Source: Patescibacteria group bacterium
GTDB lineage: Bacteria > Patescibacteriota > Saccharimonadia > Saccharimonadales > EFPC-124
Assembly (NCBI GenBank): GCA_035568355.1
Contig: DATMOD010000029.1
Span: forward strand, 1-61,555
Length of the DNA: 61,555 nucleotides
Direction: 5' to 3'
A program made the translations under genes and the position numbers. Position 1 is the stretch's first letter. Every line of letters starts with the position of its first letter. The notes beneath the pieces are model-generated. The model worked only from the letters and a program-made list of their open reading frames with translations, was not told where the DNA came from and did no database searches. This document shows, in pieces, positions 4,291 through 61,555 of the stretch.

Positions 4291-5108
4291 CGCACACCAA
4301 TTAAGTTGGAACTCTCGTAACGTCTAATACTGCGCTTAAATAACCATAAAGATACGATCAGCCAGAAAATACTCAAGGCAGCACCAACCACCACAAGTTC
4401 CCAATGTAAATTACGCAGAATATCAATCTGTATGGCACCCATAAACAGTCCGGGCACTACTAGTAACAATACTGTGCGCAACGCACCTGTTAAAACTCCT
4501 GTTGGATACATGCTTGTATCTAGAAACAAAGAAGCAAGATATCGTACCAAACGGTCACTGTCAAATAAGTAAAATGCTAATAGACCCGGCAATAGCAAGA
4601 AGAAGCACCAGAATAAAATACATCCCTCAAATACAACTACCAGAAACAACAGGGTACCAGCCAAGCTAGCATGAGCATAAGCAGCATACCAGATCATTAT
4701 GCCCAGCCCCATTAGTAAATCGCCAACCGCACTAACTTCAACACTAGAACTGGCGACCTGACTAAGCACAGAAACTGGTTTGGTCAAAAAGTTATCAAAC
4801 GAACCTTGGTCGACTCGTGTAGATAGATCATCAGATAAGCCGCCACTCATTAGCATTACTACGCCGAATATAAACATATTAATACCTTGCAGCCCAATCA
4901 ACTCGTAGCCACTCCAGCCGTTTATGTTACCGAAGTAGCCAAACATAAACAACCAAGCCAAAATCAAGGCTGAATTGTTAAGCACCATGCCAACAACCTG
5001 AGTGATAAAGGCGCCGCGCAGGGCCGCGGATGCATTAAACTGAGTCCGCAAGCTTAGCCAGTAAATATGTGTATCGTGTTTAAGATTTTTAAAGAAGTTA
5101 GCCACCAT
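4287..5108 (-). CDS. ABC-2 type transporter permease, second permease of a three-gene uncharacterized ABC system
   Basis: It is polytopic and hydrophobic, overlaps the upstream permease, and shares an operon with the ATPase. Confidence 0.75.
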   Translation of the reverse strand: MVANFFKNLKHDTHIYWLSLRTQFNASAALRGAFITQVVGMVLNNSALILAWLFMFGYFGNINGWSGYELIGLQGINMFIFGVVMLMSGGLSDDLSTRVDQGSFDNFLTKPVSVLSQVASSSVEVSAVGDLLMGLGIMIWYAAYAHASLAGTLLFLVVVFEGCILFWCFFLLLPGLLAFYLFDSDRLVRYLASLFLDTSMYPTGVLTGALRTVLLLVVPGLFMGAIQIDILRNLHWELVVVGAALSIFWLIVSLWLFKRSIRRYESSNLIGVR

Positions 5109-5892
5109 TGACCTCGATTCTTTTTTCGACCCGAGCCCAAATAAATTGACAAAAAACTAGCAATAACACGGACCATACAACCGCAGAGATCAACGTAGCT
5201 GGCAAATTAGCCACCATTGCTGGATTAAAAAGCTGAGTTGGGGCAGCGTACACCCCAAAAGGCGAATATCGAATTATAGACTGAACTACGCCTGGCAACA
5301 AAGCAATCGGCACAAAGCCACCGCCAAAAATTAAAACCACTTTATCTGTGAGCCTATAGACCGACTTGGCATCGTTAAGCCAAAAAGCGCTCAATCCAAT
5401 TGTCAAAAACAAACTAGCCGCGGCGACTATAGCCAAAATTGTCAGTAATATAAAGCTCAGCACCACGACTATTGATATATGTGATGTATCAGGCAACCCC
5501 ACAAACATATACAGCGCACAAGGGATAGCTACCAAACCGACTAGAAATTCCAGGCCATTCTTGCCAATTAGTTGGCAAACTTTGGTCAAGCGCCAGTCCA
5601 GTGGTTTAATTAAGCCGACCTCTACCATGCCGGTGCTTACTTCGTGGTTAACAATTTTAAAGACATTCCTGAGCCCCAAATTTAAAATCAAACCGAAATA
5701 TATGCCGATCCCCCAAATGGCGTTGGCATATGGTAGCGAGGCATGATTCAACTTCCTATAGGCCACGCCATAGATGGCAGCAATTAGCCCAATCCTAATG
5801 ACAGACACCGACACGCCAGCAATTAGCCGCTTGGCATTAGCAGCGTCTTCGTGAGCCGAGGTTTTTACAACCTGCCAATAAGCATTAATCAT
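5098..5892 (-). CDS. ABC-2 type transporter permease
   Basis: It is polytopic and hydrophobic, and its ends overlap both neighbouring genes. Confidence 0.75.
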   Translation of the reverse strand: MINAYWQVVKTSAHEDAANAKRLIAGVSVSVIRIGLIAAIYGVAYRKLNHASLPYANAIWGIGIYFGLILNLGLRNVFKIVNHEVSTGMVEVGLIKPLDWRLTKVCQLIGKNGLEFLVGLVAIPCALYMFVGLPDTSHISIVVVLSFILLTILAIVAAASLFLTIGLSAFWLNDAKSVYRLTDKVVLIFGGGFVPIALLPGVVQSIIRYSPFGVYAAPTQLFNPAMVANLPATLISAVVWSVLLLVFCQFIWARVEKRIEVNGG

Positions 5893-6914: not shown

Positions 6915-7035
6915 GTGATTTACCTGACCCAGCACTTTTCCGTAATCATGAGCTGTCTACCGCCTAATTTGATACTAAGACTTATATTTTGCTAAAGAGT
7001 GATTACGGAAAAGTGCTGAAGGTCAGGTAGATCAC
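6915..7035 (+). mobile_element. MITE-like element, family 1, copy A
   Basis: The left terminal inverted repeat GTGATTTACCTGACCCAGCACTTTTCCGTAATCA matches the reverse complement of 7000-7035. The interior shares the GAGCTGTCTACC and TAAGACTTAT blocks with the other copies. Confidence 0.8.
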
Positions 7036-10301: not shown

Positions 10302-10418
10302 GCGCACCTGACCCATCTGCACTTTTAAGAATCGCTCCTTAACGAAACACCTGTACTATGCATTATATCTGGGGTTGTCAGCTCGTGATTCTTAAAAGTG
10401 CAGATGGGTCAGGTGCGC
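10302..10418 (-). mobile_element. MITE-like element, family 1, copy B, in inverted orientation relative to copies A, C and D
   Basis: It has a perfect 32-bp terminal inverted repeat, GCGCACCTGACCCATCTGCACTTTTAAGAATC. Its reverse-complemented interior matches ACGAGCTG..ATATAATGCATAG..TTTCGTTAAGGAG. Confidence 0.85.
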
Positions 10419-14060: not shown

Positions 14061-14143
14061 TGGATATCATTATAGCAAACCCAGCTGACGCAAAATTCCC
14101 CCTGTTAGAAGACAGTCTTCTAGAAGAACTGTATAATAGCCGT

Positions 14144-24655: not shown

Positions 24656-27600
24656 TTATCTTTGCAGTATTTCTATAGCTGTCAGGTTCCATCGATCGTT
24701 AGTGGGCGCCGTGTCATTAATCGTCACTACCGTGCCAGAAGCCGGCGTAATGTTAGTTTGGCGTTGTGCCCAATAGGTATCACCAGATGAAGCCAAAAAC
24801 TCATCAACCTTGGTCTGGTTAGTACCAACAGTTCGAGCGGTTGCTGAATCCCAGTCGTTACCAACACCCCATACCCACGAGTTAGCAGCTGTGGTGGTAA
24901 GTGAAACGCTAGGTGCGCCCGTAGATGCATTAGCACTGGCTACCGCACCATCGACAGCCGTATTAGCGTTAAGGAAAGCTACCACATTGATTGAGCCGAT
25001 AAACGAGCCGCTATTTCTAGTAGCTACAGTGGCTATGCTAGTACCAGCTGTTGGAGCAACTGCTGTCCAGATCTCAGAAGTACCAGCTTGGGTGTTGGTA
25101 CGTTGTCGCAACTTCCAGGTCAGGCCGCCCCCACTAACGGATGCGAAGTTAATGGTGCCCGGGTTTGGGCCATCTGAGTTAATAAATGCTACCAGCAGTT
25201 CATTAGCTGCCGCCGTAGTCAAACTCGGGGCATTAATAGTATTGCTTGCAGTTGTTTGATGGAAGCTGACTGCTTTATCAACTGCCAGTGCTGCAGAAGC
25301 AGCTGGGGTTGTAACTGCCGCCGAATTAGACGCTGGGCTGACATTACCAGCCGCATCACGAGCTGTAACCGTATAGCTATAGCTTGTGCTGGCGACTACG
25401 GTGTTGTCTGTGTATGTAGTGCTGGTTCCGGCTGTTGTGCCAACAGTCACGCCGTTGCGGAGTACAGTGTATCCAGTCACACCAACATTGTCGGTTGAAG
25501 CTGCCCAGCTTAGAGAAACTGAACTTGAGCTGGTAGCGCTGGCTGTTAGGTTAGCTGGTGCTGTTGGCGGGGTGGTATCGGCAGTAACGACCACGCTAGT
25601 TTCGTTAGAGGATGAGCTAATATTGCCGGCAGTATCTTGAGCTTGAACCTTGTAATAATAGGTACCAGCTGCTAAACCACTGTCAGTAAAACTAGTAGTA
25701 GCACTGGTGCCAATCTGGTTAGACGCGCCAGGAGTAAATCCGGTAGTAGTAGAGCGATAAACAACATAGTTTGCTATTCCTGCACTACTAGTCGATGCAG
25801 TCCAGCTGAGAGTTGCCTTGCCGATACTTCCTGTCCCTGTTAAGTTAGCTGGTGCTGTTGGCGGGGTGGTAGATTCGTAAGCAGCTGGAAACCGAACCAT
25901 CGAAGCGACCGATGGCACGCCATTACTATTAACAATAAATAGCATGTAGTATCCGGGAGGAGCCGTATTGCTGTTTGGGGGCATCTGAATGTTTAAGCCA
26001 CCCGCAGTTTGGGTAAAGCTGAGTGGTACAGCTCGACCGTTTTGATCAAACGAATGAGTTGTTGACCCAGTACGAATCAGAGTCACCTTGCTGATACTCG
26101 CACCATCTGGCGTGCCAACAAAGGTATTTGACCCATAAGCTACCGTACTAGGTGCTGAACTGATGGTTGGTCGTGCCCCCTTAAAAAGATACGATGGGGA
26201 GTAAATCTGGTAACTTTTTTGGTCTGGTACACCGGCGTCACCACCGCTTCCAGATTCAAATATACGACCGTCGGGCATAAGAAGAGCGGTTGAATGATAC
26301 AAGCGAGCCACACTCATGCTGGCGAGAGTTGACCAACTACCGCTACTTGGGTTCCAAAGCTCAGCCTGTAGGACACCGTTGGCATTGCTCGAACCAGTCT
26401 TAGTTGTATCGCCACCCGTAGCCAGCACCGTGCCATCTGGCAAATTTACAAGATTCACAAAACTACGCGGGAAAGCCATGCTGCCAGTTGGTTGCCAAGT
26501 TGGGTTGGGTTTACTCATATCTAATGTGAAAGCTGTGTTGCTTGAAGCGCCAGTGTTGCCGCTATCAGCAGCCGAACCAGCCTTCATAAACAGATTAGGG
26601 GCATAATTGGCAATGCTGGCACCATCAATTATGCGAGCGTCAATTGTGCTCCACTGCTGGGTAGTAAGATCGAGCACTTTTGTTGAGGTGGCGACTTCGG
26701 ATGCACCAGCTTGTAGAACCCGCCCGTCTGGTAACTGATACATAAATGGATAGACTGGTATTGACTGAGTAGCGCTAGTAGCCATGTCAGTCCATGTATT
26801 GTTCTGGACATTATATATCTCTGGGATAGTAACCAGATCATTTATGGCCGTGTTGTAGCCAGAGGTTGCCATTACTCTACCATCACCTAGTGTAGTGCCC
26901 GTAGCGTACCAACGAGGATGGTGCATTGGCGCAAGACTTTGCCAGGTTTCGGTAGTTGGATTAAAGGCAGTTACAGCAGTAGTGCCAAGGCCGCCACTAG
27001 TTGAGGTTCCGCCGATAACCAATATGCGACCATCAGCAGTTACTGCTTGCCCAGCACAGAAAAGATCGGCTGCAGCATTCGGTACTTGATTGATACTATC
27101 ATTAGTCGGATTGTAGAGATATTGTTGCCCACCTTGCGAAAAGTCTCCCTGCATTGTTAGGATTTTGCCAGTAGGCGTTAAGGCAGCGTGAATCGAAACC
27201 TCTGGGTAAGTAACCACTGGACCCCACTGTCCAATCAACGACGCATTTGAACCGGCATTAGAAACAGTCACGCTTACACCACTGGTAGTTGCAGTACCGC
27301 CAGCTGCATTTCGGGCACGCGCTGATAAAACGTGACTACCATTTACGGTTTGGGTGGTATCCCAGTTTATATTGTAAGGCGCTGTCGTAATCTCGGCTCC
27401 CAGGTTTGCACCGTCGAGCAAGAATTGTACGCCAACAACTCCCACGCTATCGCTAGCAGTGGCGCTAACGACCACACTATTCGAAACTGTGGCTCCACTA
27501 CTAGGCGCTGTCATCTGAACAGTTGGTGGAGTAACGTTAGTGGTTGCTGGTAGAATTTCTATAAGCGACAGGTTCCATCGGTCGTTGATAGGTGCAGTGT

Positions 27601-28285
27601 CGTTAATAGTCACGGCTGTACCAGCAGCTGACGTGACATTGGTTTGGCGTTGTACCCAATACGTATCACCAACAGGAGCCAAGAACTCATCAACCTTGGT
27701 CTGGTTAGCACCAACAGTTCGAGCAATCGCTGCATCCCAGTCAGTACCAACACCCCAGACCCACGAGTTAGCTCTGGTCGTGGTAAGTGAGGCACTTGGT
27801 GCACCGGTAGTCGAGTTGCCAGTGCCAACAGCACCGTCAGTAGAAATATCAGCACCAATAAAGGCTACTACATTCATAGAAGCTGTGTAAGCCCCTGAAT
27901 TGCTAGCCGTTACGCTCATATTACTCATCACATTTGGTGCGACAGCAGTCCAGATTTCAGCTGTACCGGCTTGGGTATTAGTGCGCTGTCTCAGTCGCCA
28001 GGTTAGACCACCGCCACTAACACCAGAGAACGTTTCGTTAGTAGATCCGTCAGAACTTAAGAAAGCCACCAGTAGCTCGTTAGTCGTAGCAGTGTTAAAA
28101 GCTGGCGAAGTTATAGTACTAGAAGCTGTCGACAAGTGTTGACTAACTTGCTGGTCTACTACCAGGCTAGCCGCCGAAGCTGGTCGGGCAAAGAATATGC
28201 TCGATATCCCGCTCGAGCCAAATACTAAAAATATAGACAACCCCACCAAAGAAAAGCGGCGCAGCCATTGATTAAGCCTTTGCAT
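24656..28285 (-). CDS. Large secreted multidomain protein. Order: signal peptide, domain X, Ig-like domain, galactose-oxidase-like kelch propeller plus DUF1929-like domain, 2x FN3, domain X'.
   Basis: There is a strong CAGGAGGT Shine-Dalgarno. The motifs LFCAGQAVTADGRILVIGG, HPRWYATGTTLGDGRV, RLYHSTALLMPDGRIF and GSTTHSFDQNGR align with the Cys-Tyr/Tyr-His/His copper ligand set of galactose oxidase. FN3 repeats follow the PPTAPANLT segments. Confidence 0.85.
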   Translation of the reverse strand: MQRLNQWLRRFSLVGLSIFLVFGSSGISSIFFARPASAASLVVDQQVSQHLSTASSTITSPAFNTATTNELLVAFLSSDGSTNETFSGVSGGGLTWRLRQRTNTQAGTAEIWTAVAPNVMSNMSVTASNSGAYTASMNVVAFIGADISTDGAVGTGNSTTGAPSASLTTTRANSWVWGVGTDWDAAIARTVGANQTKVDEFLAPVGDTYWVQRQTNVTSAAGTAVTINDTAPINDRWNLSLIEILPATTNVTPPTVQMTAPSSGATVSNSVVVSATASDSVGVVGVQFLLDGANLGAEITTAPYNINWDTTQTVNGSHVLSARARNAAGGTATTSGVSVTVSNAGSNASLIGQWGPVVTYPEVSIHAALTPTGKILTMQGDFSQGGQQYLYNPTNDSINQVPNAAADLFCAGQAVTADGRILVIGGTSTSGGLGTTAVTAFNPTTETWQSLAPMHHPRWYATGTTLGDGRVMATSGYNTAINDLVTIPEIYNVQNNTWTDMATSATQSIPVYPFMYQLPDGRVLQAGASEVATSTKVLDLTTQQWSTIDARIIDGASIANYAPNLFMKAGSAADSGNTGASSNTAFTLDMSKPNPTWQPTGSMAFPRSFVNLVNLPDGTVLATGGDTTKTGSSNANGVLQAELWNPSSGSWSTLASMSVARLYHSTALLMPDGRIFESGSGGDAGVPDQKSYQIYSPSYLFKGARPTISSAPSTVAYGSNTFVGTPDGASISKVTLIRTGSTTHSFDQNGRAVPLSFTQTAGGLNIQMPPNSNTAPPGYYMLFIVNSNGVPSVASMVRFPAAYESTTPPTAPANLTGTGSIGKATLSWTASTSSAGIANYVVYRSTTTGFTPGASNQIGTSATTSFTDSGLAAGTYYYKVQAQDTAGNISSSSNETSVVVTADTTPPTAPANLTASATSSSSVSLSWAASTDNVGVTGYTVLRNGVTVGTTAGTSTTYTDNTVVASTSYSYTVTARDAAGNVSPASNSAAVTTPAASAALAVDKAVSFHQTTASNTINAPSLTTAAANELLVAFINSDGPNPGTINFASVSGGGLTWKLRQRTNTQAGTSEIWTAVAPTAGTSIATVATRNSGSFIGSINVVAFLNANTAVDGAVASANASTGAPSVSLTTTAANSWVWGVGNDWDSATARTVGTNQTKVDEFLASSGDTYWAQRQTNITPASGTVVTINDTAPTNDRWNLTAIEILQR
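24659..25288 (-). repeat. C-terminal copy of the intragenic direct repeat of about 0.63 kb (domain X')
   Basis: It aligns along its whole length with 27545-28165 at both the DNA and protein level. Shared blocks include GGGLTW+LRQRTNTQAGT.EIWTAVAP, NSWVWGVG.DWD and NDRWNL. Confidence 0.9.
27545..28165 (-). repeat. N-terminal copy of the intragenic direct repeat (domain X)
   Basis: See 24659-25288. Confidence 0.9.
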
Positions 28286-28432: not shown

Positions 28433-29515
28433 TCAGTTAAGAGTCGTCTCTCCATAAGACTCAATAAATCCGTCCAATTTACCATCTAGCACAGCTTGAG
28501 CATCATGCTCTTCGTACTTAGTGCGATTATCTTTAACAAGCGTGTACGGATGGAGTACGTACGATCGGATTTGACTCCCCCATTCCGCCGACTGAGTTGG
28601 CCCCTTTAAATTGGCGACGGTTTCTTGGTGCTGTTCGAGTGCTAGCTGGGCCAGCTTAGAGCGCAGAACCTTCATGGCGGTCTCTTTGTTTTGTAGCTGA
28701 CTGCGTTCGTTCTGGATACTAACTGTAATGCCGGTCGGCAAATGAGTCACGCGCACTGCAGAATCAGTCGTATTAACACTCTGGCCACCATGGCCTCCAG
28801 CTCGATAGACATCAATCCTAAGGTCTTTATCGTCTATTTGCACTTCATCAGGCGCATCAATCTGAGGCAAAACCTCAACTAATGCAAAGGATGTCTGCCG
28901 TAAATGATCGGCATTAAATGGGCTTAGCCGCACCAAACGATGCACGCCATGCTCACCACGTAACTTACCGAAGGCATAGGCGCCACTCACGCTAATCATT
29001 ACACTCTTTATGCCGGCTTCTTCACCCCTTGATTCTTCAATAAGCTCAGTCTTCATGCCTGAACGCTCTGCCCAGCGCAAGTACATACGCAATAACATTT
29101 CTGTCCAATCTTGGGCATCCGTGCCACCAGCGCCAGCATGTAAGCGCAAGATCACGTCGTGATCATCATACCTGCCAGAAAACTGCAAATCCTTTTTGAG
29201 CTTAGAATATTGCTGTTCCGCCTCTGCCAGCTGTTCGGTCAGCTCAACAAGCAAAGCCTCATCACCAGCACCCGCTAGTTCTAGAAGATCTTTTGCTTCG
29301 TTCTCGATCTTTAACCAAGGCTCTAGCTGCATTCGTAGCTTAGCTTCTTTTTGCACAACCAGCTGGGCTTTAATATTATCTTGCCAAAAATCCGTCTCGG
29401 CCATCTGTGCTTGCAAAGTCTTTAGTTCAGCCTGCAGCTTATCGGCACCAAGTTTAGCCAAAGCTTGTTTGATTTGGTCGTTGAGTTTTTGGATTGATTT
29501 TTGGATTGGCTGCAT
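28433..29515 (-). CDS. prfB: Peptide chain release factor 2, encoded as an uninterrupted ORF
   Basis: It has the SPF motif (RLSPFNA) and the GGQ motif ([16 protein letters not shown]). Confidence 0.95.
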   Translation of the reverse strand: MQPIQKSIQKLNDQIKQALAKLGADKLQAELKTLQAQMAETDFWQDNIKAQLVVQKEAKLRMQLEPWLKIENEAKDLLELAGAGDEALLVELTEQLAEAEQQYSKLKKDLQFSGRYDDHDVILRLHAGAGGTDAQDWTEMLLRMYLRWAERSGMKTELIEESRGEEAGIKSVMISVSGAYAFGKLRGEHGVHRLVRLSPFNADHLRQTSFALVEVLPQIDAPDEVQIDDKDLRIDVYRAGGHGGQSVNTTDSAVRVTHLPTGITVSIQNERSQLQNKETAMKVLRSKLAQLALEQHQETVANLKGPTQSAEWGSQIRSYVLHPYTLVKDNRTKYEEHDAQAVLDGKLDGFIESYGETTLN

Positions 29516-29573
29516 TTAGTAACTAGTATAGCTTATGGGATAGGCAATCAGCTGTCACATTCTATCCAGATGA

Positions 29574-30890
29574 TTATAATTTTCGCACTGACGCGATAAA
29601 CTGATCACCTCTATCATTATAATTCTTGAACATATCAAAACTCGCACAAGCTGGTGACAGCAGAACGACATCGCCAGGCCTAGCAATTTTATGAGCATAC
29701 CCAACGATCTCGTTCATATTGCTCTGCTCGTCGAATAATCTTACGTCTTCGAACCCGACTCTTTTTAGCGCTGTCTGCAATTTAAAACGCATGTTGCCGA
29801 TCAGAATCGCCTGCCTGATATCCTGCTTGGCAACTTCTGCGGCCAACTCATCAAAATCCGCACCTTTGTCGGAACCACCCAGAATTATTATCTTGGGTGG
29901 TATAAAAGCCCGTAATGCCACGATAGCCGAATCTGGTGTGGTGGCAAAACTATCATCATAGTACTTGACCCCATCCACAGTTCGCACCAATTGCAGTCTA
30001 TGATTCAAACCCTTAAAATCTTTTATAGCCTCTCTAAAACCTCTGATTGCCTCGCGAAAAGCAGCATCATCACCCACAAGTTGCCAAGCTGCACTTATGG
30101 CAGCGCAGATGTTTTCTAGGTTATGAGCCCCAGGGATATTAACGTCGCTGAGCTTACAGACCTCGTAGCCCTCAATCACAATACGATCACCGTCTATGTA
30201 AGCAGCCTCTTGAGTACCAAAACGGAACTTAAACGTAGCTGGTGATTTCTCAGCAATACGACGAGCATATACATTGGTTGGATGATAGATGATAAAGTCT
30301 CCTGGCTTTTGCCAACGAGCAATATTGCTCTTAGCAGCTAAATACTCATCAAAATCGGTATGAACATCTAGGTGATCAGGAGCAATCATACCAACCACTG
30401 CAATATGTGGGCTTTGGTGTAAATCCCATAACTGAAAACTAGAGAGTTCTAGCACTACAATGTCATCGGGCTTAATGTCATCTAGCATATCAAGCACCGG
30501 CACGCCAATATTACCGCCGATATGCACACGCTTACCAGCAGCTTGCAGCATTTTATATATCAGAGTCGTAATAGTGCCCTTGCCCTTGCTGCCAGTCACG
30601 CCAATTATATTTTTGGATGGGCAGACCTCAAAGAATTTTTTAACAGTTGAAGTTATCTCGCCGTTGGCTTTAATACGATCTGGCCTAATGCTTGGTGTTC
30701 GCACTACAATATCAAAATCGGTCAGTTCGGCAAAAATATCTTTGCCAATTAGCTGTTTGGCTCCAGACGGCACATCACTAATCGGATGTTCATCAGCAAT
30801 AGTCATGTCATAGCCACCCTGAGCTGCAAAATATTTATACGCCGAGTGACCTTCAATGCCAAAACCAGCAATGGCTACCTTTTTGTTCAT
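29574..30890 (-). CDS. murD: UDP-N-acetylmuramoylalanine-D-glutamate ligase
   Basis: The sequence contains GVTGSKGKGT. I moved the start to MNKKVAIAGFG at 30890, because the ORF-track extension is encoded by a repeat element. Confidence 0.9.
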   Translation of the reverse strand: MNKKVAIAGFGIEGHSAYKYFAAQGGYDMTIADEHPISDVPSGAKQLIGKDIFAELTDFDIVVRTPSIRPDRIKANGEITSTVKKFFEVCPSKNIIGVTGSKGKGTITTLIYKMLQAAGKRVHIGGNIGVPVLDMLDDIKPDDIVVLELSSFQLWDLHQSPHIAVVGMIAPDHLDVHTDFDEYLAAKSNIARWQKPGDFIIYHPTNVYARRIAEKSPATFKFRFGTQEAAYIDGDRIVIEGYEVCKLSDVNIPGAHNLENICAAISAAWQLVGDDAAFREAIRGFREAIKDFKGLNHRLQLVRTVDGVKYYDDSFATTPDSAIVALRAFIPPKIIILGGSDKGADFDELAAEVAKQDIRQAILIGNMRFKLQTALKRVGFEDVRLFDEQSNMNEIVGYAHKIARPGDVVLLSPACASFDMFKNYNDRGDQFIASVRKL

Positions 30891-30925
30891 AACAATAGTA
30901 TAGCAGTTCACTAACGGAGCCAGCT

Positions 30926-31077
30926 CTGACCAACCCACACTCACGTTTTCGCACATATCATCCCCAAGCCTTGGCTGGGAATCCAGGACAAAATGGAATA
31001 CATTCTAACTGGATCCCCGATCAGGTCGGGGATGACGGCAATGTGAGCTTAGAGATAAAAAGTGAGCGTGGGCCCAG
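30926..31077 (+). mobile_element. Composite palindromic element, family 2 core with family 1-like ends (copy 3)
   Basis: The ends are CTGACCAACCCACACTCACGTTTT and AAAAAGTGAGCGTGGGCCCAG. The core at 30958-31066 differs at 1 of 109 nt from the reverse complement of 35820-35928. Confidence 0.85.
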
Positions 31078-31091
31078 CTTCTGCTGAAGTC

Positions 31092-31595
31092 TTATTTGAT
31101 CGTATAAGCTCCCGAGGTCTCAAAAACTCCATTGGTATATAACTTGATCTTATAAGTACCTATTGGATGAGTTTGGCCAGGCTTGAGGCTAAAGTTAAAA
31201 CCAATACGTTGCGCTCCATCTTTTATAATGTTTACGGCGCCGTTATCAACCATAAAATCATCCCGATAACGAATATACTCTATGCGACTGCCTTTTTTAG
31301 CGTTATTTAGCCCTACGGTAATATAAATTGTGCTGTCTGTTTGCTTAAAATCAACACCGGGGGTTTTTATATTGCCAGCAGAATCCAGCACAGTGCCGAA
31401 TCTCAAAGCTTGGACTACCCCCGGGCGCTTAAGTTTTGCAACTACAGCCGGGGTGACAGGTGCGGCTGGCTTGTTACTGTTCTGATAAACATAGTAGCCA
31501 GCACCACCGGCAAGCACGATAACTAGTAAGACAATCAATATAACGTCCAAAGACCCTGCCATTGATTCAGACTGTGTCTTTAATCGCTTATTCAC
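31092..31595 (-). CDS. Hypothetical membrane-anchored protein
   Basis: It has one N-terminal transmembrane helix and overlaps the upstream ORF. Confidence 0.6.
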   Translation of the reverse strand: MNKRLKTQSESMAGSLDVILIVLLVIVLAGGAGYYVYQNSNKPAAPVTPAVVAKLKRPGVVQALRFGTVLDSAGNIKTPGVDFKQTDSTIYITVGLNNAKKGSRIEYIRYRDDFMVDNGAVNIIKDGAQRIGFNFSLKPGQTHPIGTYKIKLYTNGVFETSGAYTIK

Positions 31596-31924
31596 TGATT
31601 AGCTCCCCCGTTGTTTTGGCTAGCAGCTGGTACCGAATTGTCCATCCCACCCGAGCCAGACGTTCCATCGTCCATTTGGCTTTCTTGCGGACCAACGGTT
31701 TGATCAATCTGTACTTGGCCATTGTCAACTTGGCTTTGAACATTCTCGCTGTCTTTTACTTCTTGTTCATAAGCTGCAATGTCAGAATGAGCCTGAGCCT
31801 CAGCCTGACCGTCAGCTAGATCTCTAGCATAATCACTCTGTATTGGGGCGGCAAATGCCACACCAGTCGATACCGTTGCAACAAGCATCGCTCCGGTTGT
31901 CATTTTTAATATTTTGTTTCTCAT
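31592..31924 (-). CDS. Hypothetical small secreted acidic protein
   Basis: It has a signal-peptide-like N-terminus, MTTGAMLVATVSTGVAFAAP. Confidence 0.55.
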   Translation of the reverse strand: MRNKILKMTTGAMLVATVSTGVAFAAPIQSDYARDLADGQAEAQAHSDIAAYEQEVKDSENVQSQVDNGQVQIDQTVGPQESQMDDGTSGSGGMDNSVPAASQNNGGANQ

Positions 31925-31976
31925 AGGTCCCCCCTAATATGTCTGCTAATAATATAGCATAAGTATCAAAATCAAT

Positions 31977-33263
31977 TCAAATGAATAATTTAGAAAGTTG
32001 CTCGTGGAATCCATCAAGTTCAGCCTTAGTGCATTGCCCCAATCCACCAAAAGCCCAACGCTTGCCAGACATTAGATTATTAAGCGATTGCACGATTATG
32101 TCTTTATTGACGGCTTCGATTGCCAGCGGTCGCTTGTCGTAATCGTTAATATAACCATCAAAAAAATAACGCCCGCTATACCAGTTAGCAATCGAGCCAA
32201 CGGTCTGACAGCCCATTTGATGTTTGCCCAGCGCAAACTGTTTGGCGGCTTCTATATCTTTTTGTTTGATATCGCCCTTCATGACCTTAGAGACCTCTTG
32301 GACTATAATATCGAATAATTTTGGAGCATTCTTTAGGCTAACTTGACCTTCAAAGTCCCACTCGCTCGTACTATCACTCACTTCAAAATGTGATCCCATT
32401 CCATAGATCAATCCCTGTTCTCTGGCCTGTCCCAGAATGTGTGAATGCAATGTACCAGTCAACATATGGCTAAGTACTCGCATTGCATCACGTTCGTTAT
32501 CATGAAACCGCCAGTTAGCCTCAATCGCTAGACCAAATATCATGTTTTCGACATCTTTGCGGACAACTCGAATTGGTTCAGGTGCCCCCACCAGCTCTTC
32601 GTGTCTCATAGAAAATCGCTCGCCACGTGGTAATTGCCATTTTTCGAGCTGCTGGATTACAGTTTCGCGTCGCCCGTCTTTTAGGCTACCAGCAATTACA
32701 AACCGCATGTTATCACTAGTATGTGTGCGGTGGTAGTGCTCCTTGATGTGCTCTAACTGAACATTTGGCATATTTTTAAGACGCTGTTCATCATTCAAGA
32801 ATCTTTCACCGCTGGCCTGGCCTAATCGCTGCCACAGGACCATCCAATTATTGTTGAGCAGCCCGGTAAGTTCTTCTTTGACGTTGCCAGACTCTGCCTT
32901 AAACTCGCTTTCTAAAAAGAGTGGTTTAGTTATAGCCAATCGCAACAAGCCAAAAATGCGATCCCATTCAAAATCAGCACAATCGGCTACGTATTTGAGA
33001 CTAACCTTGCCGGTCGATGCGTTAGAATAAGCACCATTTTTTTCTAGCTCGGCATTAAAGATTCGAGCATTATCGTATTGCTCGTTAGCACCCAGAACCA
33101 TGTGCTCCATGATATGGGCTGTTTCGTAGATATCATCACCTTGGGTATATTCGTCCCCTGCCCTAAATTCAAAGTCGTAACTCATAACCGTGGCGTTTGG
33201 GATATGAATTAGCAACCCACGGCTACCATTTTGTAATACAACTTCTTCTACGGAATGTTTCAT
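31977..33263 (-). CDS. M16 (pitrilysin/insulinase) family zinc peptidase
   Basis: HIMEH is an inverted HxxEH zinc motif. I moved the start to MKHSVEE at 33263. Confidence 0.85.
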   Translation of the reverse strand: MKHSVEEVVLQNGSRGLLIHIPNATVMSYDFEFRAGDEYTQGDDIYETAHIMEHMVLGANEQYDNARIFNAELEKNGAYSNASTGKVSLKYVADCADFEWDRIFGLLRLAITKPLFLESEFKAESGNVKEELTGLLNNNWMVLWQRLGQASGERFLNDEQRLKNMPNVQLEHIKEHYHRTHTSDNMRFVIAGSLKDGRRETVIQQLEKWQLPRGERFSMRHEELVGAPEPIRVVRKDVENMIFGLAIEANWRFHDNERDAMRVLSHMLTGTLHSHILGQAREQGLIYGMGSHFEVSDSTSEWDFEGQVSLKNAPKLFDIIVQEVSKVMKGDIKQKDIEAAKQFALGKHQMGCQTVGSIANWYSGRYFFDGYINDYDKRPLAIEAVNKDIIVQSLNNLMSGKRWAFGGLGQCTKAELDGFHEQLSKLFI

Positions 33264-35808: not shown

Positions 35809-35956
35809 CCTAACCAAGCCTCACTTTTTATCTCTAAGCTCACATTGCCGTCATCCCCGACCTGATCGGGGATCCAGTTAGAATGGATTCCATTTTGTCC
35901 TGGATTCCCAGCCAAGGCTTGGGGATGACGAGGATGGAAAAGTGAGGGTGGGTCAG
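35809..35956 (-). mobile_element. Composite palindromic element (copy 4), inverted relative to copy 3
   Basis: See 30926-31077. An extra solo end, CTGACACTCACATTTTT, lies at 35964-35980. Confidence 0.85.
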
Positions 35957-41621: not shown

Positions 41622-41715
41622 GCGCTACGTCATTCCCAACTTGACTAAGGAATCCAGGACAAATACAGAATTCCATTTTCACTGGATTCCCGCCTCCGCG
41701 GGAATGACGTAGCGC
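41622..41715. repeat. Family 2 palindromic unit (copy 5) with a perfect 16-bp terminal inverted repeat
   Basis: The sequence is GCGCTACGTCATTCCC...GGAATCCAG...CTGGATTCC...GGGAATGACGTAGCGC. Confidence 0.8.
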
Positions 41716-43885: not shown

Positions 43886-43920
43886 GGGGGATCCCCGATC
43901 AAACTGGGAATGACACAGCG
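43886..43920. repeat. Half copy of the family 2 unit
   Basis: GGGGGATCCCCGATCAAACTGGGAATGACACAGCGC resembles the right half of copies 3 and 5. Confidence 0.45.
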
Positions 43921-47973: not shown

Positions 47974-48175
47974 GGAACTCCTTCGTACACCCCGTATTCT
48001 ACCATAAAGCGCCACTAACTCTGGTGGACTCAACAATTCACAAAATACCGCTCTATTAAAGGTAAGGGTCTCCCTCCTTTAGAATGAGGCATTAAATTCT
48101 CGAAGACTGTCTTCTAGCAGAAAGGATTTTGCGTCAGTCGCTAGAAGAGTTGTTGTTTAGAATCTTTATCTGGCT

Positions 48176-54248: not shown

Positions 54249-54363
54249 ATCCTTTTACTCCTTCACCCGCGCACGCCCCAAAAAGGGAGGATGTAAGCTA
54301 CGGGTTGTTTTATGGTTAAAATTTACTGCATTATTGTATCTGATACAGGGCTTTTTGTCTACA

Positions 54364-54475
54364 GCCTGACCCATATGTATATTTTCATAACCACGAGCTG
54401 TCTACTACTTAATATAATAATTAAGACTAGTGTTTCATTAAAGAGAGGTTATAAAAATATACATATGGGTCAGGC
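54364..54475 (+). mobile_element. MITE-like element, family 1, copy C
   Basis: The left end GCCTGACCCATATGTATATTTTCATAACC matches the reverse complement of the right end with 1 mismatch. The interior is ACGAGCTGTCTAC..TAAGACTAGTGTTTCATTAAAGAGAGG. Confidence 0.85.
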
Positions 54476-54608
54476 TTATAGTGTCTGGGGACTATGGGCT
54501 TTACAGAACATGACCGTGGCGCTGGCGCAGAGTCTTACTCATAATACAAGTAGACCTTGACATATGTCTCATATTTTTTCATAGTATTCAAATACTAATG
54601 AATGGATT

Positions 54609-57937: not shown

Positions 57938-58136
57938 GCCTGACCCACATGCACTTTTTCAGAACACGAGCTGTCTACCACTGATCTAATTAATTCCAAG
58001 GAGTCACCCTGGAAGTAAAACTCCAGGGTGACTCCTTGGAATTCTGGGAGGGAGTAAGCTGTCTACCACAAAATATAATGCATAAGACTTATTGTTTCGT
58101 TAAGAGAGGTTTTGTAAAAGTGAGTGTGGGTCAGGC
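57938..58136 (+). mobile_element. MITE-like element, family 1, copy D, carrying a nested 76-bp insertion at 57981-58056
   Basis: The ends are GCCTGACCCACATGCACTTTTTCAGAAC and GGTTTTGTAAAAGTGAGTGTGGGTCAGGC. AGCTGTCTACCA is duplicated at 57969-57980 and 58057-58068. Confidence 0.85.
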
Positions 58137-58202: not shown

Positions 58203-58532
58203 ATGAAAAAAGATCTACACCCATCAGATTATCGCACTGTCGTCTTCCAGGATACGACCGCCGATTTTAGATTGCTAACCAAGTCTACCGCCACCACTAA
58301 AAAAACAATTAAGTGGGAAGATGGCAACGAATATCCTCTGATTGACGTTCATGTTTCTAGTGCCTCACACCCCTTTTATACCGGTAAAGAAAAGTTATTA
58401 GACATCGCTGGCCGAGTCGATAAATTTGCTGCTCGTACTAAAGCCGCTAAAGAACTCCGCTCTGCTCTAGCCAACAAAGCTAAAAAAACTGCTGCCCAAG
58501 CTGCTAAAAAATCTGCAGATAAAACTGACTAA
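58203..58532 (+). CDS. rpmE: 50S ribosomal protein L31, type B (no CxxC zinc motif), with a Lys/Ala-rich tail
   Basis: The sequence contains MKKDLHP and [11 protein letters not shown]. Confidence 0.9.
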
Positions 58533-58554
58533 AGATTGCAGGCTCTAGAGTCTT

Positions 58555-59622
<1,068 letters not shown>

Positions 59623-60126
59623 TTGGTTGGCCCTGGCAGAAAAGCAATTAGCTGAAGCCAGTATCGAAACTAGCAGATTAGATGCTCTAGTCTTACTAAG
59701 TGACGAGCTAGATCATGACAAAGCTTGGCTCTTAGCTCATCCTGAACACAAATTAACTACAGCACAACAGATACGACTAAACAAAAATCTATCCAAACGA
59801 CAGCTACACATGCCCCTCGCCTACATTCGAGAACGCAAAGAATTTTACGGAAGAGAGTTTTTAACAACGAATAAAGTTCTTATACCCCGGCCAGAAACCG
59901 AGACTTTAATAACCAAGTTTTTAGAATTGCCTGCCCAACCAGCTGACAAGTTAATTGACGTAGGCACAGGCTCGGGCGCGATTGCAATAACTGCTAAATT
60001 GGAGCGACCCGAGCTTGATATTTACGCCACAGACATTAGCCAAGCAGCTCTAGTTGTAGCTACTAAAAACGCTAAGCATCTGCAAGCAGACATCGTATTT
60101 CAGCAGAACGACCTTCTCTCTACTCC

Positions 60127-60209
60127 CCGTCATTCCCAACTTGATTGGGAATCCAGTAAGAAAAGGAATTCATTATTGACTGGATACCCGATCAAGCCGG
60201 GTATGACGG
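60127..60209. repeat. Family 2 palindromic unit (copy 9) inside the prmC coding sequence
   Basis: CCGTCATTCCCAACTTGATTGGGAATCCAG...CTGGATACCCGATCAAGCCGGGTATGACGG aligns along its length with copy 5 (41622-41715). Confidence 0.8.
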
Positions 60210-60509
60210 AGGCCAACTATAAATTTGATATGACCAATAGCCATTTCAAATTTATAGTCGCCAACCTACCCTACGTGTCTAAGGACTGGGAGGTATCACC
60301 AGAGATAGCTTTCGAGCCCAGTAGCGCAGTATTTGCAGATCAAGACGGTTTAGCTCTGATCAAAAAATTAATAGTCCAAGCTAAAAACCATCTTTTGCCT
60401 GACGGTTATCTATTACTTGAATCCGACCTTAGACAACACCCAGCAATCACCCACTATGCCAAAACCCATGGTTACACACTGCATAGTCATCAGGATCTTA
60501 TTTTAGTTT

Positions 60510-61555
60510 TCACTGCGCCATAGGTGGCGTAGCTGGGCTAGTAGGCGTCGGATAAGCCTCTAAGGTCACTGTCACTACAGACTCTTTACCATCACGCTGA
60601 ATAGTCAGTTTTATTTTATCGCCTGCCCCAAAGCCAGATATAATACTGGCTAAGCTCCTCTGCTGAGTCACATCGATATCATTAACCTTAAGTATTATGT
60701 CGTGCTCACGCAGGCCGGCTTTATCCGCCGGGCTACCAGGCAAAACAGCAGGCTGGCTGGGGCCACCAGATATATAGGCCCCGTGATCAACGCTTACATT
60801 AATTGAACTAGCAGCCTCAGGGGTTAGGCTAACATAGCGCGCGCCAAGATACGGTTTAACAATCTTGCCAGTCTTGCGGACAGTATCTACTAAACGCTTG
60901 GCGTCATTAATCGGAATTGCAAAGCCAATCGTCTGAGCCGACTCAGCCGTAGCAACATTTATACCTATAACTTTACCGTCAAGCGTTACAAGCGGCCCAC
61001 CAGAATTCCCAGGGTTGATAGCTGCGTCTGTCTGCAAAAGATTCTCTAATTTTTCGGAGCTACCAGTACTACCATCAGTGGCTTGCAGCGGACGGCCGAT
61101 ACCAGAGATAATACCGGCTGTTATACTATTCCGAAACTGCCCTAACGCATTACCTATGGCAGCCACCCGTTGCCCAGGCTGCACTAAACTAGAGTCCCCA
61201 AGCTCAGCAACTGCCATACTATTCACACCTGCGATTTTAAGAAAGGCTATATCGTTTAGCGGGTCACGGCCCACAACAGTAACATCGTTGTACTGCTTGC
61301 CGTCAGCCATCATCACACTCACTTTGGTAATTCCTTCTGGTACCACATGCTTGTTAGTCAGTACATAGCCATCACTAGAGATAATCAAGCCACTACCCGC
61401 CCCTTTTTGCACAGAAGTTGTACCAAAAAAATTAACCGGAGATACCGACTCCGTGATAACCGAAACAGTAGCCGGACTAACCTTTTTGAATACGTTAGCC
61501 ATAGCTTCGCCTTCTTGCAATACAATCTTTTCACGATTTTGAGTTATAGTTCTAG
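60510..61555 (-). CDS. HtrA/DegP-family serine protease with a PDZ domain; the 5' end probably lies beyond the window
   Basis: It has a trypsin-like GNSGGPLV motif and a PDZ domain. The frame stays open upstream of the TTG at 61520 to the window edge. Confidence 0.85.
   Translation of the reverse strand, partial: RTITQNREKIVLQEGEAMANVFKKVSPATVSVITESVSPVNFFGTTSVQKGAGSGLIISSDGYVLTNKHVVPEGITKVSVMMADGKQYNDVTVVGRDPLNDIAFLKIAGVNSMAVAELGDSSLVQPGQRVAAIGNALGQFRNSITAGIISGIGRPLQATDGSTGSSEKLENLLQTDAAINPGNSGGPLVTLDGKVIGINVATAESAQTIGFAIPINDAKRLVDTVRKTGKIVKPYLGARYVSLTPEAASSINVSVDHGAYISGGPSQPAVLPGSPADKAGLREHDIILKVNDIDVTQQRSLASIISGFGAGDKIKLTIQRDGKESVVTVTLEAYPTPTSPATPPMAQ

Follow-up and report, generated by a model that had tools for sequence, protein, structure and literature searches.

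The locus described here lies on a 61,555-nt contig (DATMOD010000029.1 of assembly GCA_035568355.1, hereafter the window) from a bacterium of the Saccharimonadales within the Patescibacteria. An unbroken open reading frame (ORF) on the plus strand (59588–60523) encodes the release-factor N5-glutamine methyltransferase PrmC, and is part of a cluster comprising rpmE (L31), prfA (58555–59622), prmC and, on the minus strand from 60510 onward, a gene for an HtrA-like protease; the order L31-prfA-prmC-htrA is also kept in the nearest relatives, L001, L002 and L003. The database protein (P0001, 311 aa) starts at the ATG at 59588, while a TTG at 59627 provides an alternative start that gives a product of 298 aa, and residue numbering herein counts from this TTG. 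The product matches the TIGR03534 RF_mod_PrmC model at 202.2 bits, against a cut-off of 199.1, and carries the Pfam domains PrmC_N and MTS. An initial annotation made from the sequence alone had remarked that the catalytic tetrapeptide, encoded at 60263–60274 on the plus strand (N213–Y216), reads NLPY in place of NPPY. The reading is correct, and it has no tie to the insert described below: NLPY is invariant in 29/29 aligned Saccharimonadia-type PrmC proteins and is thus a clade-wide trait.

The same annotation had reported a palindromic unit of about 83 bp that sits inside prmC in frame and ends in CCGTCAT and ATGACGG. We found the unit in frame and both ends in place (60127–60133 and 60203–60209), with its size in need of refinement: the conserved core spans 81 nt (60128–60208, plus strand; 27 codons, R168–T194, from CGTCAT to ATGACG), and the full block homologous to other doublets reaches over about 60123–60218 on the plus strand, extending the core by CTCCC to the left and by GAGGCCAAC(T) to the right. 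In total, prmC exceeds its orthologues by 105 nt, or 35 residues, which appears as a 105-nt gap when its DNA is aligned to that of L001–L003. Approximately 9–24 of these extra bases have no clear derivation from the element, and they include an inverted copy of downstream codons. The frame in which the core is read is the sole stop-free frame of the six; the intergenic copies of the element have one to three open frames apiece.

The core is composed of two hairpin arms, inverted across a spacer and with their tags facing outward. The left arm (60128–60156, plus strand) consists of a CGTC tag (60128–60131), an 8-bp stem ATTCCCAA/TTGGGAAT closed by the 5-nt loop CTTGA, and a CCAG tail (60153–60156). 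The right arm (60180–60208, minus strand) reads CGTC ATACCCGG CTTGA TCGGGTAT CCAG, its tag lying at 60208–60205 of the minus strand and the complement of the CCA(G) tail at 60180–60183. Between them is a spacer of 23 nt (60157–60179, plus strand; TAAGAAAAGGAATTCATTATTGA); alignments show that the remaining copies of the genome have homologous spacers. The two arms differ at 5 positions with each stem preserved; relative to the left arm, the right arm has its own compensated stem change (T>A paired with A>T), and its stem comprises seven Watson-Crick pairs and one G-T pair. Since the arms differ and each stem is nonetheless kept, it is the hairpin, and not a long duplex between the arms, that appears to be the conserved unit. 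Folded as single-stranded DNA, the unit has a free energy of −23.4 kcal/mol (z = −6.8 relative to shuffled sequences). Scans of the window with Rfam at gathering thresholds and for tRNA and tmRNA genes found nothing.

Adjoining the element is a local hairpin (60216–60258, plus strand) with the perfect 13-bp arms ACTATAAATTTGA and TCAAATTTATAGT, present as first described at 60216–60228 and 60246–60258, around a 17-nt loop. Perfect inverted repeats of at least 13 bp with a loop of at most 60 number five in the window, compared with 0.035 in simulations. The right arm of the hairpin corresponds to conserved F-K-F-I-V codons, and the left arm, which falls within the extra DNA, is an inverted copy of them; the orthologue in L001 has the right arm only. 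The 13-mer arm is not part of a repeat family, and a flanking inverted duplication was absent from the six other in-frame copies that were inspected. The inverted F-K-F-I-V copy may be a scar left by fold-back repair, the trace of some small event that came earlier, or a hint at the chemistry of insertion.

The insert within the PrmC protein

We aligned the window protein with 28 PrmC relatives, the closest of which, P0002, is 74% identical. Those PrmC and UvrC relatives for which a source is named are assigned to Saccharimonadales or to 'Patescibacteria group'. Where the window protein has 41 residues, 27 of the 28 relatives have 5–9, and the remaining one, P0026, has a long insert of different sequence at this site. 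E. coli PrmC aligns to residues 12–162 and 202–277 of the query, with residues 163–201 matching only about 5 E. coli residues, and so the initial placement of the insert, by comparison with E. coli, after the strands that bind SAM and before the N(P/L)PY loop holds. The inserted residues are missing from all 27 aligned orthologues, which contradicts the possibility, raised at the outset, that they form an ancestral loop. As the insert is both missing from orthologues and homologous to intergenic repeats of the same genome, it represents a lineage-specific repeat insertion. A protein search, a cluster look-up and a metagenome scan for a closer insert-free gene returned only the identical allele or relatives of at most 74% identity, and the nearest gene without the insert is therefore 74% identical at the protein level.

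The long insert of P0026 is itself a palindrome. In its prmC gene (contig L124), an unrelated palindrome of 106 nt with 31-nt arms that are 90% complementary (L124 3529–3634) lies in frame in the beta3-beta4 loop, and no relatives of it were found among the sequences compared. The occurrence of an unrelated palindrome at the same loop marks it as an evidently permissive site.

On both sides of the insert, the window protein keeps 40/40 of the columns that are invariant in the 29-sequence alignment. Its identity to P0002 is 0.79 before and 0.67 after the insert, and its identity to P0003 is 0.63 on either side. A second prmC was not found in the approximately 103 kb of sequence attributed to the organism. 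With an intact ORF, all invariant columns kept and no second copy in those 103 kb, the gene is unlikely to be the pseudogene that had been considered as an alternative. The AF2 model of the window PrmC, built from the 29-sequence alignment, averages a pLDDT of 91.4 and places the insert between the strand at 156–160 and the strand at 207–212 as a low-confidence excursion: the 10-residue blocks 161–170, 171–180, 181–190 and 191–200 have pLDDT values of 79, 59, 60 and 56, respectively, and all remaining blocks are at or above 91. The top structural match of the model is E. coli PrmC from its complex with RF1 (2B3T_A), with a target-normalised TM-score of 0.88. The fold of PrmC is thus predicted to be intact despite the insert.

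Copies of the doublet in this genome and elsewhere

Eight occurrences of the 16-mer GTCATTCCCAACTTGA, allowing up to 3 mismatches, are present in the window, where 0.43 would be expected. Apart from that in prmC, the window contains three further doublets, all intergenic. The doublet at 41628–41709 (plus strand, 82 nt) is extended by a GCGCTA/TAGCGC palindrome, and its collinearity with the prmC unit, noted initially for 41622–41715, extends to the other two. The doublet at 30956–31037 (plus strand) has a degenerate left tag, TATC, and is central in a larger, different palindrome (30933–31066), and that at 35849–35930 (minus strand) lies within an outer palindrome of the same kind (35820–35953). 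A lone arm, TGTCATTCCCAGTTTGATCGGGGATCCC, is also intergenic (43888–43915, minus strand). The tags of the other copies are CGTC, TGTC or the degenerate TATC. At the DNA level, the prmC insert is 77–91% identical to the intergenic copies and to a copy in uvrC described below, non-palindromic spacer included. Spacers measure 22–24 nt across copies and are homologous, which shows that the doublet is copied as a unit. Alignment of the doublets further revealed a common CCTCCC preceding the tag and a G.RG..AA tail following it; these shared flanks seem to belong to the element.

Scanning metagenomes with a pattern specific to the spacer, we identified four contigs, all from JGI sample Ga0210403 (L125, L126, L127 and L129). 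L126 is 100% identical to 29101–32152 of the window, and L129 is 100% identical to 58259–61555 and extends past the end of the window; L125 and L127 match the window in GC content and carry both this repeat family and the larger one described below. Identical prmC and uvrC products are encoded in an ENA assembly (ERZ27253736) and in a further JGI sample (3300050821). That the same sequence occurs in JGI and ENA assemblies excludes an assembler artefact. All DNA compared between the assemblies is 100% identical, so that they may share the same reads and perhaps do not represent independent populations. The contigs that co-occur with the sequence of the window contribute two further doublets and one further lone arm to the four full copies and one lone arm of the window, giving six doublets and two lone arms in the approximately 103 kb attributed to the organism. 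The relatives L002 and L003 have no arms in their syntenic regions of 20 kb. This pattern resembles an expansion specific to the lineage.

Two of the six doublets, those in prmC and uvrC, lie in frame in housekeeping genes. The uvrC gene (L125 4950–6500, minus strand, equivalent to L131 6432–7985; protein P0121) contains a doublet that is 91% identical to the prmC copy in a BLAST alignment over 60123–60211 of the window. It falls within the RNase H-like endonuclease domain and is read in a different frame from the prmC copy, and is absent from the closest UvrC orthologues, which are 79–81% identical. The reading frame of the element thus differs between the two genes and the encoded peptides are unrelated, which argues against any peptide function.

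In Saccharimonadia, the loop of UvrC into which the doublet falls is hypervariable: long unrelated inserts are found there in several lineages (P0129, P0175, P0236 and P0237), and P0172 has a 60-residue insert elsewhere (UvrC alignment, columns about 470–570 and 370–430). The contig that carries uvrC also encodes, at L131 9293–13361, the heme-copper oxidase subunits COX1, COX3, COX4_pro and COX_ARM together with a UbiA prenyltransferase, a hint that this member of the Saccharimonadales respires aerobically.

The genome contains other repeats. A second, larger palindromic family that resembles MITEs is found in the window at 10302–10418, 54363–54476 and 57938–58136, with a partial copy near 6925–7000, and at L125 536–644. 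It has terminal inverted repeats of approximately 30 nt (GCCTGACCCA.ATG.A.TTTT...) and the internal conserved blocks ACGAGCTGTCTACC, TAAGACT and GTTTC.TTAA.GAGAGG, and has no Rfam match. The same family forms the outer arms of the palindromes at 30933–31066 and 35820–35953, the CGTC doublet being central in these two copies. These composites, which show 93% complementarity along 134 nt, flank, in inverted orientation, a 4.75-kb block of four genes that includes an M16 peptidase gene, where they could serve as a substrate for inversion. A 41-nt sequence with the palindrome AGAAGACTGTCTTCT is present at 14085–14125 and 48097–48137, inverted, 85% complementary and 34 kb apart, and may be a third small repeat. 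Finally, an ORF of 1209 residues (24656–28285, minus strand) contains a direct repeat of about 300 nt (24666–24965 and 27552–27851, 77% identical) as well as a 35-nt repeat at 25543 and 25837.

Beyond this organism, a pattern scan of one genome per species identified at least 120 loci. The matches listed come from Proteobacteria, Nitrospirota, Desulfobacterota, Chloroflexota, Planctomycetota, Gemmatimonadota, Armatimonadota, Parcubacteria, Paceibacteria and Saccharibacteria, and nearly all of them contain the canonical arm GTCATTCCCGCGAAAGCGGGAATCCAG. The 28-mer of the prmC left arm recurs exactly among these listed matches in an Armatimonadota MAG (L037). At least four cases among the matches listed are doublets in frame within conserved domains, namely in tgt of a Parcubacteria MAG (L012 6522–7505, minus strand), ileS of a Sphingomonadales MAG (L024 1458–4454, plus strand), truB (L019 1255–2295, minus strand) and the gene for a radical-SAM enzyme of a Nitrospirota MAG (L054 3–1217, plus strand). 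On the minus strand of L092, around 4959–5455, five units of CGTC doublet plus flank are arranged head to tail with a period of 124 nt, and the family therefore occurs also as tandem arrays. Viral contigs yielded 11 matches in 2.9 million, such that phages are not an obvious vector.

Kinship with CGTC-tagged REPs and other known repeats

Di Nocera, De Gregorio and Rocco (2013; PMC3733652) described CGTC-tagged REPs as elements with a CGTC tag, an 8–9-bp stem, a 4–5-nt loop and a CCA tail, in which the stem opens with A-T and T-A pairs and the terminal tag is CGTC, or TGTC/CCTC. They occur mostly as inverted dimers with spacers of 20–100 bp and were reported without RAYT association, and no dedicated transposase was found (PMC3733652). 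Each prmC arm has the tag, an 8-bp stem starting with AT, a 5-nt loop and the CCA tail, and the repetition of inverted dimers with spacers in this range is seen here in the six doublets and two lone arms of the approximately 103 kb. Judged by these sequence features, the prmC arms belong to the CGTC-tagged REP superfamily. What they have in common with its known members is the geometry of tag, stem, loop and tail, the dimers with outward tags, the many copies and the in-frame cases in housekeeping genes. They differ in the stem interior, which is CCCGC/GCGGG in the known elements and CCCAA/TTGGG here; the 5-nt loop of the prmC arms has the geometry of CGTC-2, while their ends are CGTC-1-like. 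The host phylum is also different, as Patescibacteria are not among the five phyla listed for CGTC REPs in 2013 (PMC3733652). The initial statement that such insertions had not been described for this lineage is consistent with our searches of open-access literature, in which we found no report for Saccharibacteria or Patescibacteria.

The 2013 study equates CGTC-1 with dRS3 of Neisseria and RPE-6 of Rickettsia conorii, and CGTC-4 with RPE-4 (PMC3733652). The prmC arms being CGTC REPs, the description of the insert as RPE-like in the initial annotation is literally correct; where it went too far was in treating in-frame insertion as a hallmark of the Rickettsia elements. In-frame insertion has been tabulated for both CGTC and GTAG REPs in many Proteobacteria (PMC3733652), and we found in-frame CGTC insertions in four more phyla among the matches listed. 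The tabulated intragenic CGTC dimers encode 20–30 residues (PMC3733652, Additional file 3). One of them is in R. conorii RC1314, a 524-aa protein listed as a tRNA-G-N7 methyltransferase with a CGTC-1 unit at residues 109–117 (PMC3733652); it has the same length as the NCBIfam PrmC/TrmB fusion model PRK01544. Others are in R. conorii uvrC (RC0864) and in truB and ileS of Sphingomonadales, and intragenic REPs were found to cluster in replication and repair genes (PMC3733652). Rickettsia RPEs are likewise palindromic, inserted in frame in essential genes of a small genome and tolerated at surface positions, and an in-frame palindromic repeat missing from orthologues is what we observed in both prmC and uvrC. 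RPE-1 is longer (approximately 100–150 bp) and unrelated in sequence, and the kinship with RPE-6 and RPE-4 is that drawn in PMC3733652.

In Neisseria, Chenal et al. (2025; PMC11893778) described the NTS, CGTCATTCCCGCGMAVGCGGGAATCYRG, which contains dRS3 and which the small GIY-YIG nuclease SsnA binds and cuts solely as single-stranded DNA. Related SRM hairpins and Ssn homologues occur across bacteria, where ssn encodes a small single-domain GIY-YIG protein (cd10448) and is often flanked by the motif (PMC11893778). The prmC arms have the same outer sequence as dRS3/NTS, CGTCATTCCC...GGGAATCCAG, with within-arm compensation in the hairpin. They do not match the NTS consensus CGTCATTCCCGCGMAVGCGGGAATCYRG at one mismatch or fewer, having the inner stem CCCAA/TTGGG and a 5-nt loop, and read ATTCCC-N9-GGGAAT where the dRS3 rule specifies N8. 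Only the right arm of the intergenic doublet at 41628–41709 (CGTCATTCCCGCGGAGGCGGGAATCCAG; 41683–41709, minus strand) fits the Neisseria NTS consensus, with a single mismatch. The prmC arms also fall outside the SRM string HGTCWYN(0-2)YYVSBRHN(0-5)WNVSBRGN(0-2)RNCYNB, whose only matches in the window, 31009–31037 (minus strand) and 35849–35877 (plus strand), are both arms of the doublet family (simulation mean 0.13). The Neisseria elements are clustered, intergenic and linked to transformation, and no link to transformation was seen here. The REPINs formed by GTAG REPs likewise have a doublet of inverted hairpins as the replicating unit and a presumed non-autonomous mobility; the REPIN/RAYT system differs in its GTAG tag and its RAYT, whereas here the tag is CGTC and no RAYT (Y1/HUH) gene was present among the ORFs scanned.

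Proposed origin, mobility and fate of the prmC insert

Collectively, these data make it very probable that prmC carries an in-frame insertion of a CGTC-tagged REP doublet. We propose that a non-autonomous, REPIN-like doublet, made up of two CGTC REP hairpins in inverted orientation on either side of a short spacer, became inserted into the coding part of prmC in this Saccharimonadales lineage. The insert would have survived because the net gain of 105 nt is a multiple of three, because its frame has no stop and because the site is a permissive surface segment, located between Rossmann strand beta3 (…FQQND) and beta4, where it would add approximately 35 residues as a floppy excursion. The insert is most likely translated, and PrmC probably stays active. 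In our view, the insert is a neutral passenger that neither serves as a new functional module nor kills the gene.

How the doublet moves can be addressed only tentatively. By analogy with REP/RAYT systems, it might spread as one unit, by way of a hairpin intermediate of single-stranded DNA that is handled in trans by a hairpin-specific nuclease, for which an Ssn-type GIY-YIG protein is a candidate; we consider this scheme possible, though the balance is somewhat against it. The doublet is found both in coding DNA and in the centre of other palindromes (30933–31066 and 35820–35953). We searched with phmmer, using a Devosia Ssn fragment against all ORFs of the window and of L127, L129 and L131, and with Pfam on 37 ORFs, and found no Ssn-like or small GIY-YIG gene in the approximately 103 kb, an estimated tenth of a typical genome for the group; the sole GIY-YIG domain in these searches was that of UvrC. 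Transposases, Y1/HUH included, were also absent from the ORFs scanned in these 103 kb, and the flanks of six copies compared had no consistent target-site duplication. As no ssn gene was found in this sequence, the proposed mobilising enzyme has no support here, and the way of moving is one that we infer.

A different account of how the copy arrived is that recombination, gene conversion or template switching, and not transposition, brought it into prmC, with the F-K-F-I-V inverted duplicate as a fold-back repair scar. The 13-bp inverted copy of the downstream gene that adjoins the element is far beyond chance, no target-site duplication was found and PMC3733652 found no dedicated transposase for CGTC REPs, all of which would fit this account. 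We nevertheless consider it unlikely, as the six other in-frame copies inspected lack a flanking inverted duplication, and the spread of the unit to many sites, palindrome centres included, looks like active insertion. It is slightly more doubtful still that CGTC/NTS doublets have recently been mobile in this Patescibacteria lineage with the inverted codon copy at the right junction in prmC as the footprint of a hairpin- or fold-back-primed insertion. If true, this would be a first mechanistic clue to the movement of these 'transposase-less' repeats, perhaps without a resident ssn gene.

Other readings concern the protein. A PrmC loop of ancestral or independent origin that is repeat-like by appearance only has a negligible probability as the source of the extra residues: the beta3-beta4 loop does vary slightly in length among orthologues and is long in P0026, but the sequence is common to no orthologue, its DNA is homologous to the intergenic and uvrC copies through the spacer, and the long loop of P0026 is a palindromic insertion of a different kind. 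The insertion might instead have inactivated prmC, leaving a young pseudogene or a gene whose function has moved to another copy. The insert is close to the SAM and substrate pocket and would place a strong pair of hairpins in the mRNA (−61 kcal/mol as RNA, z = −8.9). Inactivation is nonetheless improbable given the intact ORF and invariant columns, the similar identity before and after the insert, the intact predicted fold and the lack of a second prmC in the approximately 103 kb; moreover, the sole open frame is the one used, as selection for a readable gene would leave. We regard domestication of the insert as a shade less probable again, whether the peptide or the mRNA or DNA hairpin were adaptive for PrmC, for example by regulating expression or providing a new interaction surface. 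Its appeal is that the allele with the insert is the sole one seen in the assemblies and that uvrC, the second case here, matches the reported clustering of intragenic REPs in replication and repair genes (PMC3733652). Against it stand the unrelated peptides that result from the differing frames in prmC and uvrC, the low model confidence of the insert region and the presence of the doublet family in many unrelated proteins.

The prmC insert is a new instance, in a new phylum-level lineage, of a known repeat and of a known kind of in-frame insertion. On how CGTC repeats move, it adds little beyond one odd junction in prmC. The protein-decorating CGTC/NTS repeats of Rickettsia, Neisseria and many Proteobacteria are now extended to an ultra-small CPR bacterium, where the presence of one element in two frames in two essential genes constitutes a natural experiment in which tolerance, and not function, explains such inserts. 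It also carries a warning for annotation, in that peptides of the type 'RHS..GNP', 'VIP..GIQ' and 'LDSR.RGND' within conserved enzymes are derived from repeats.
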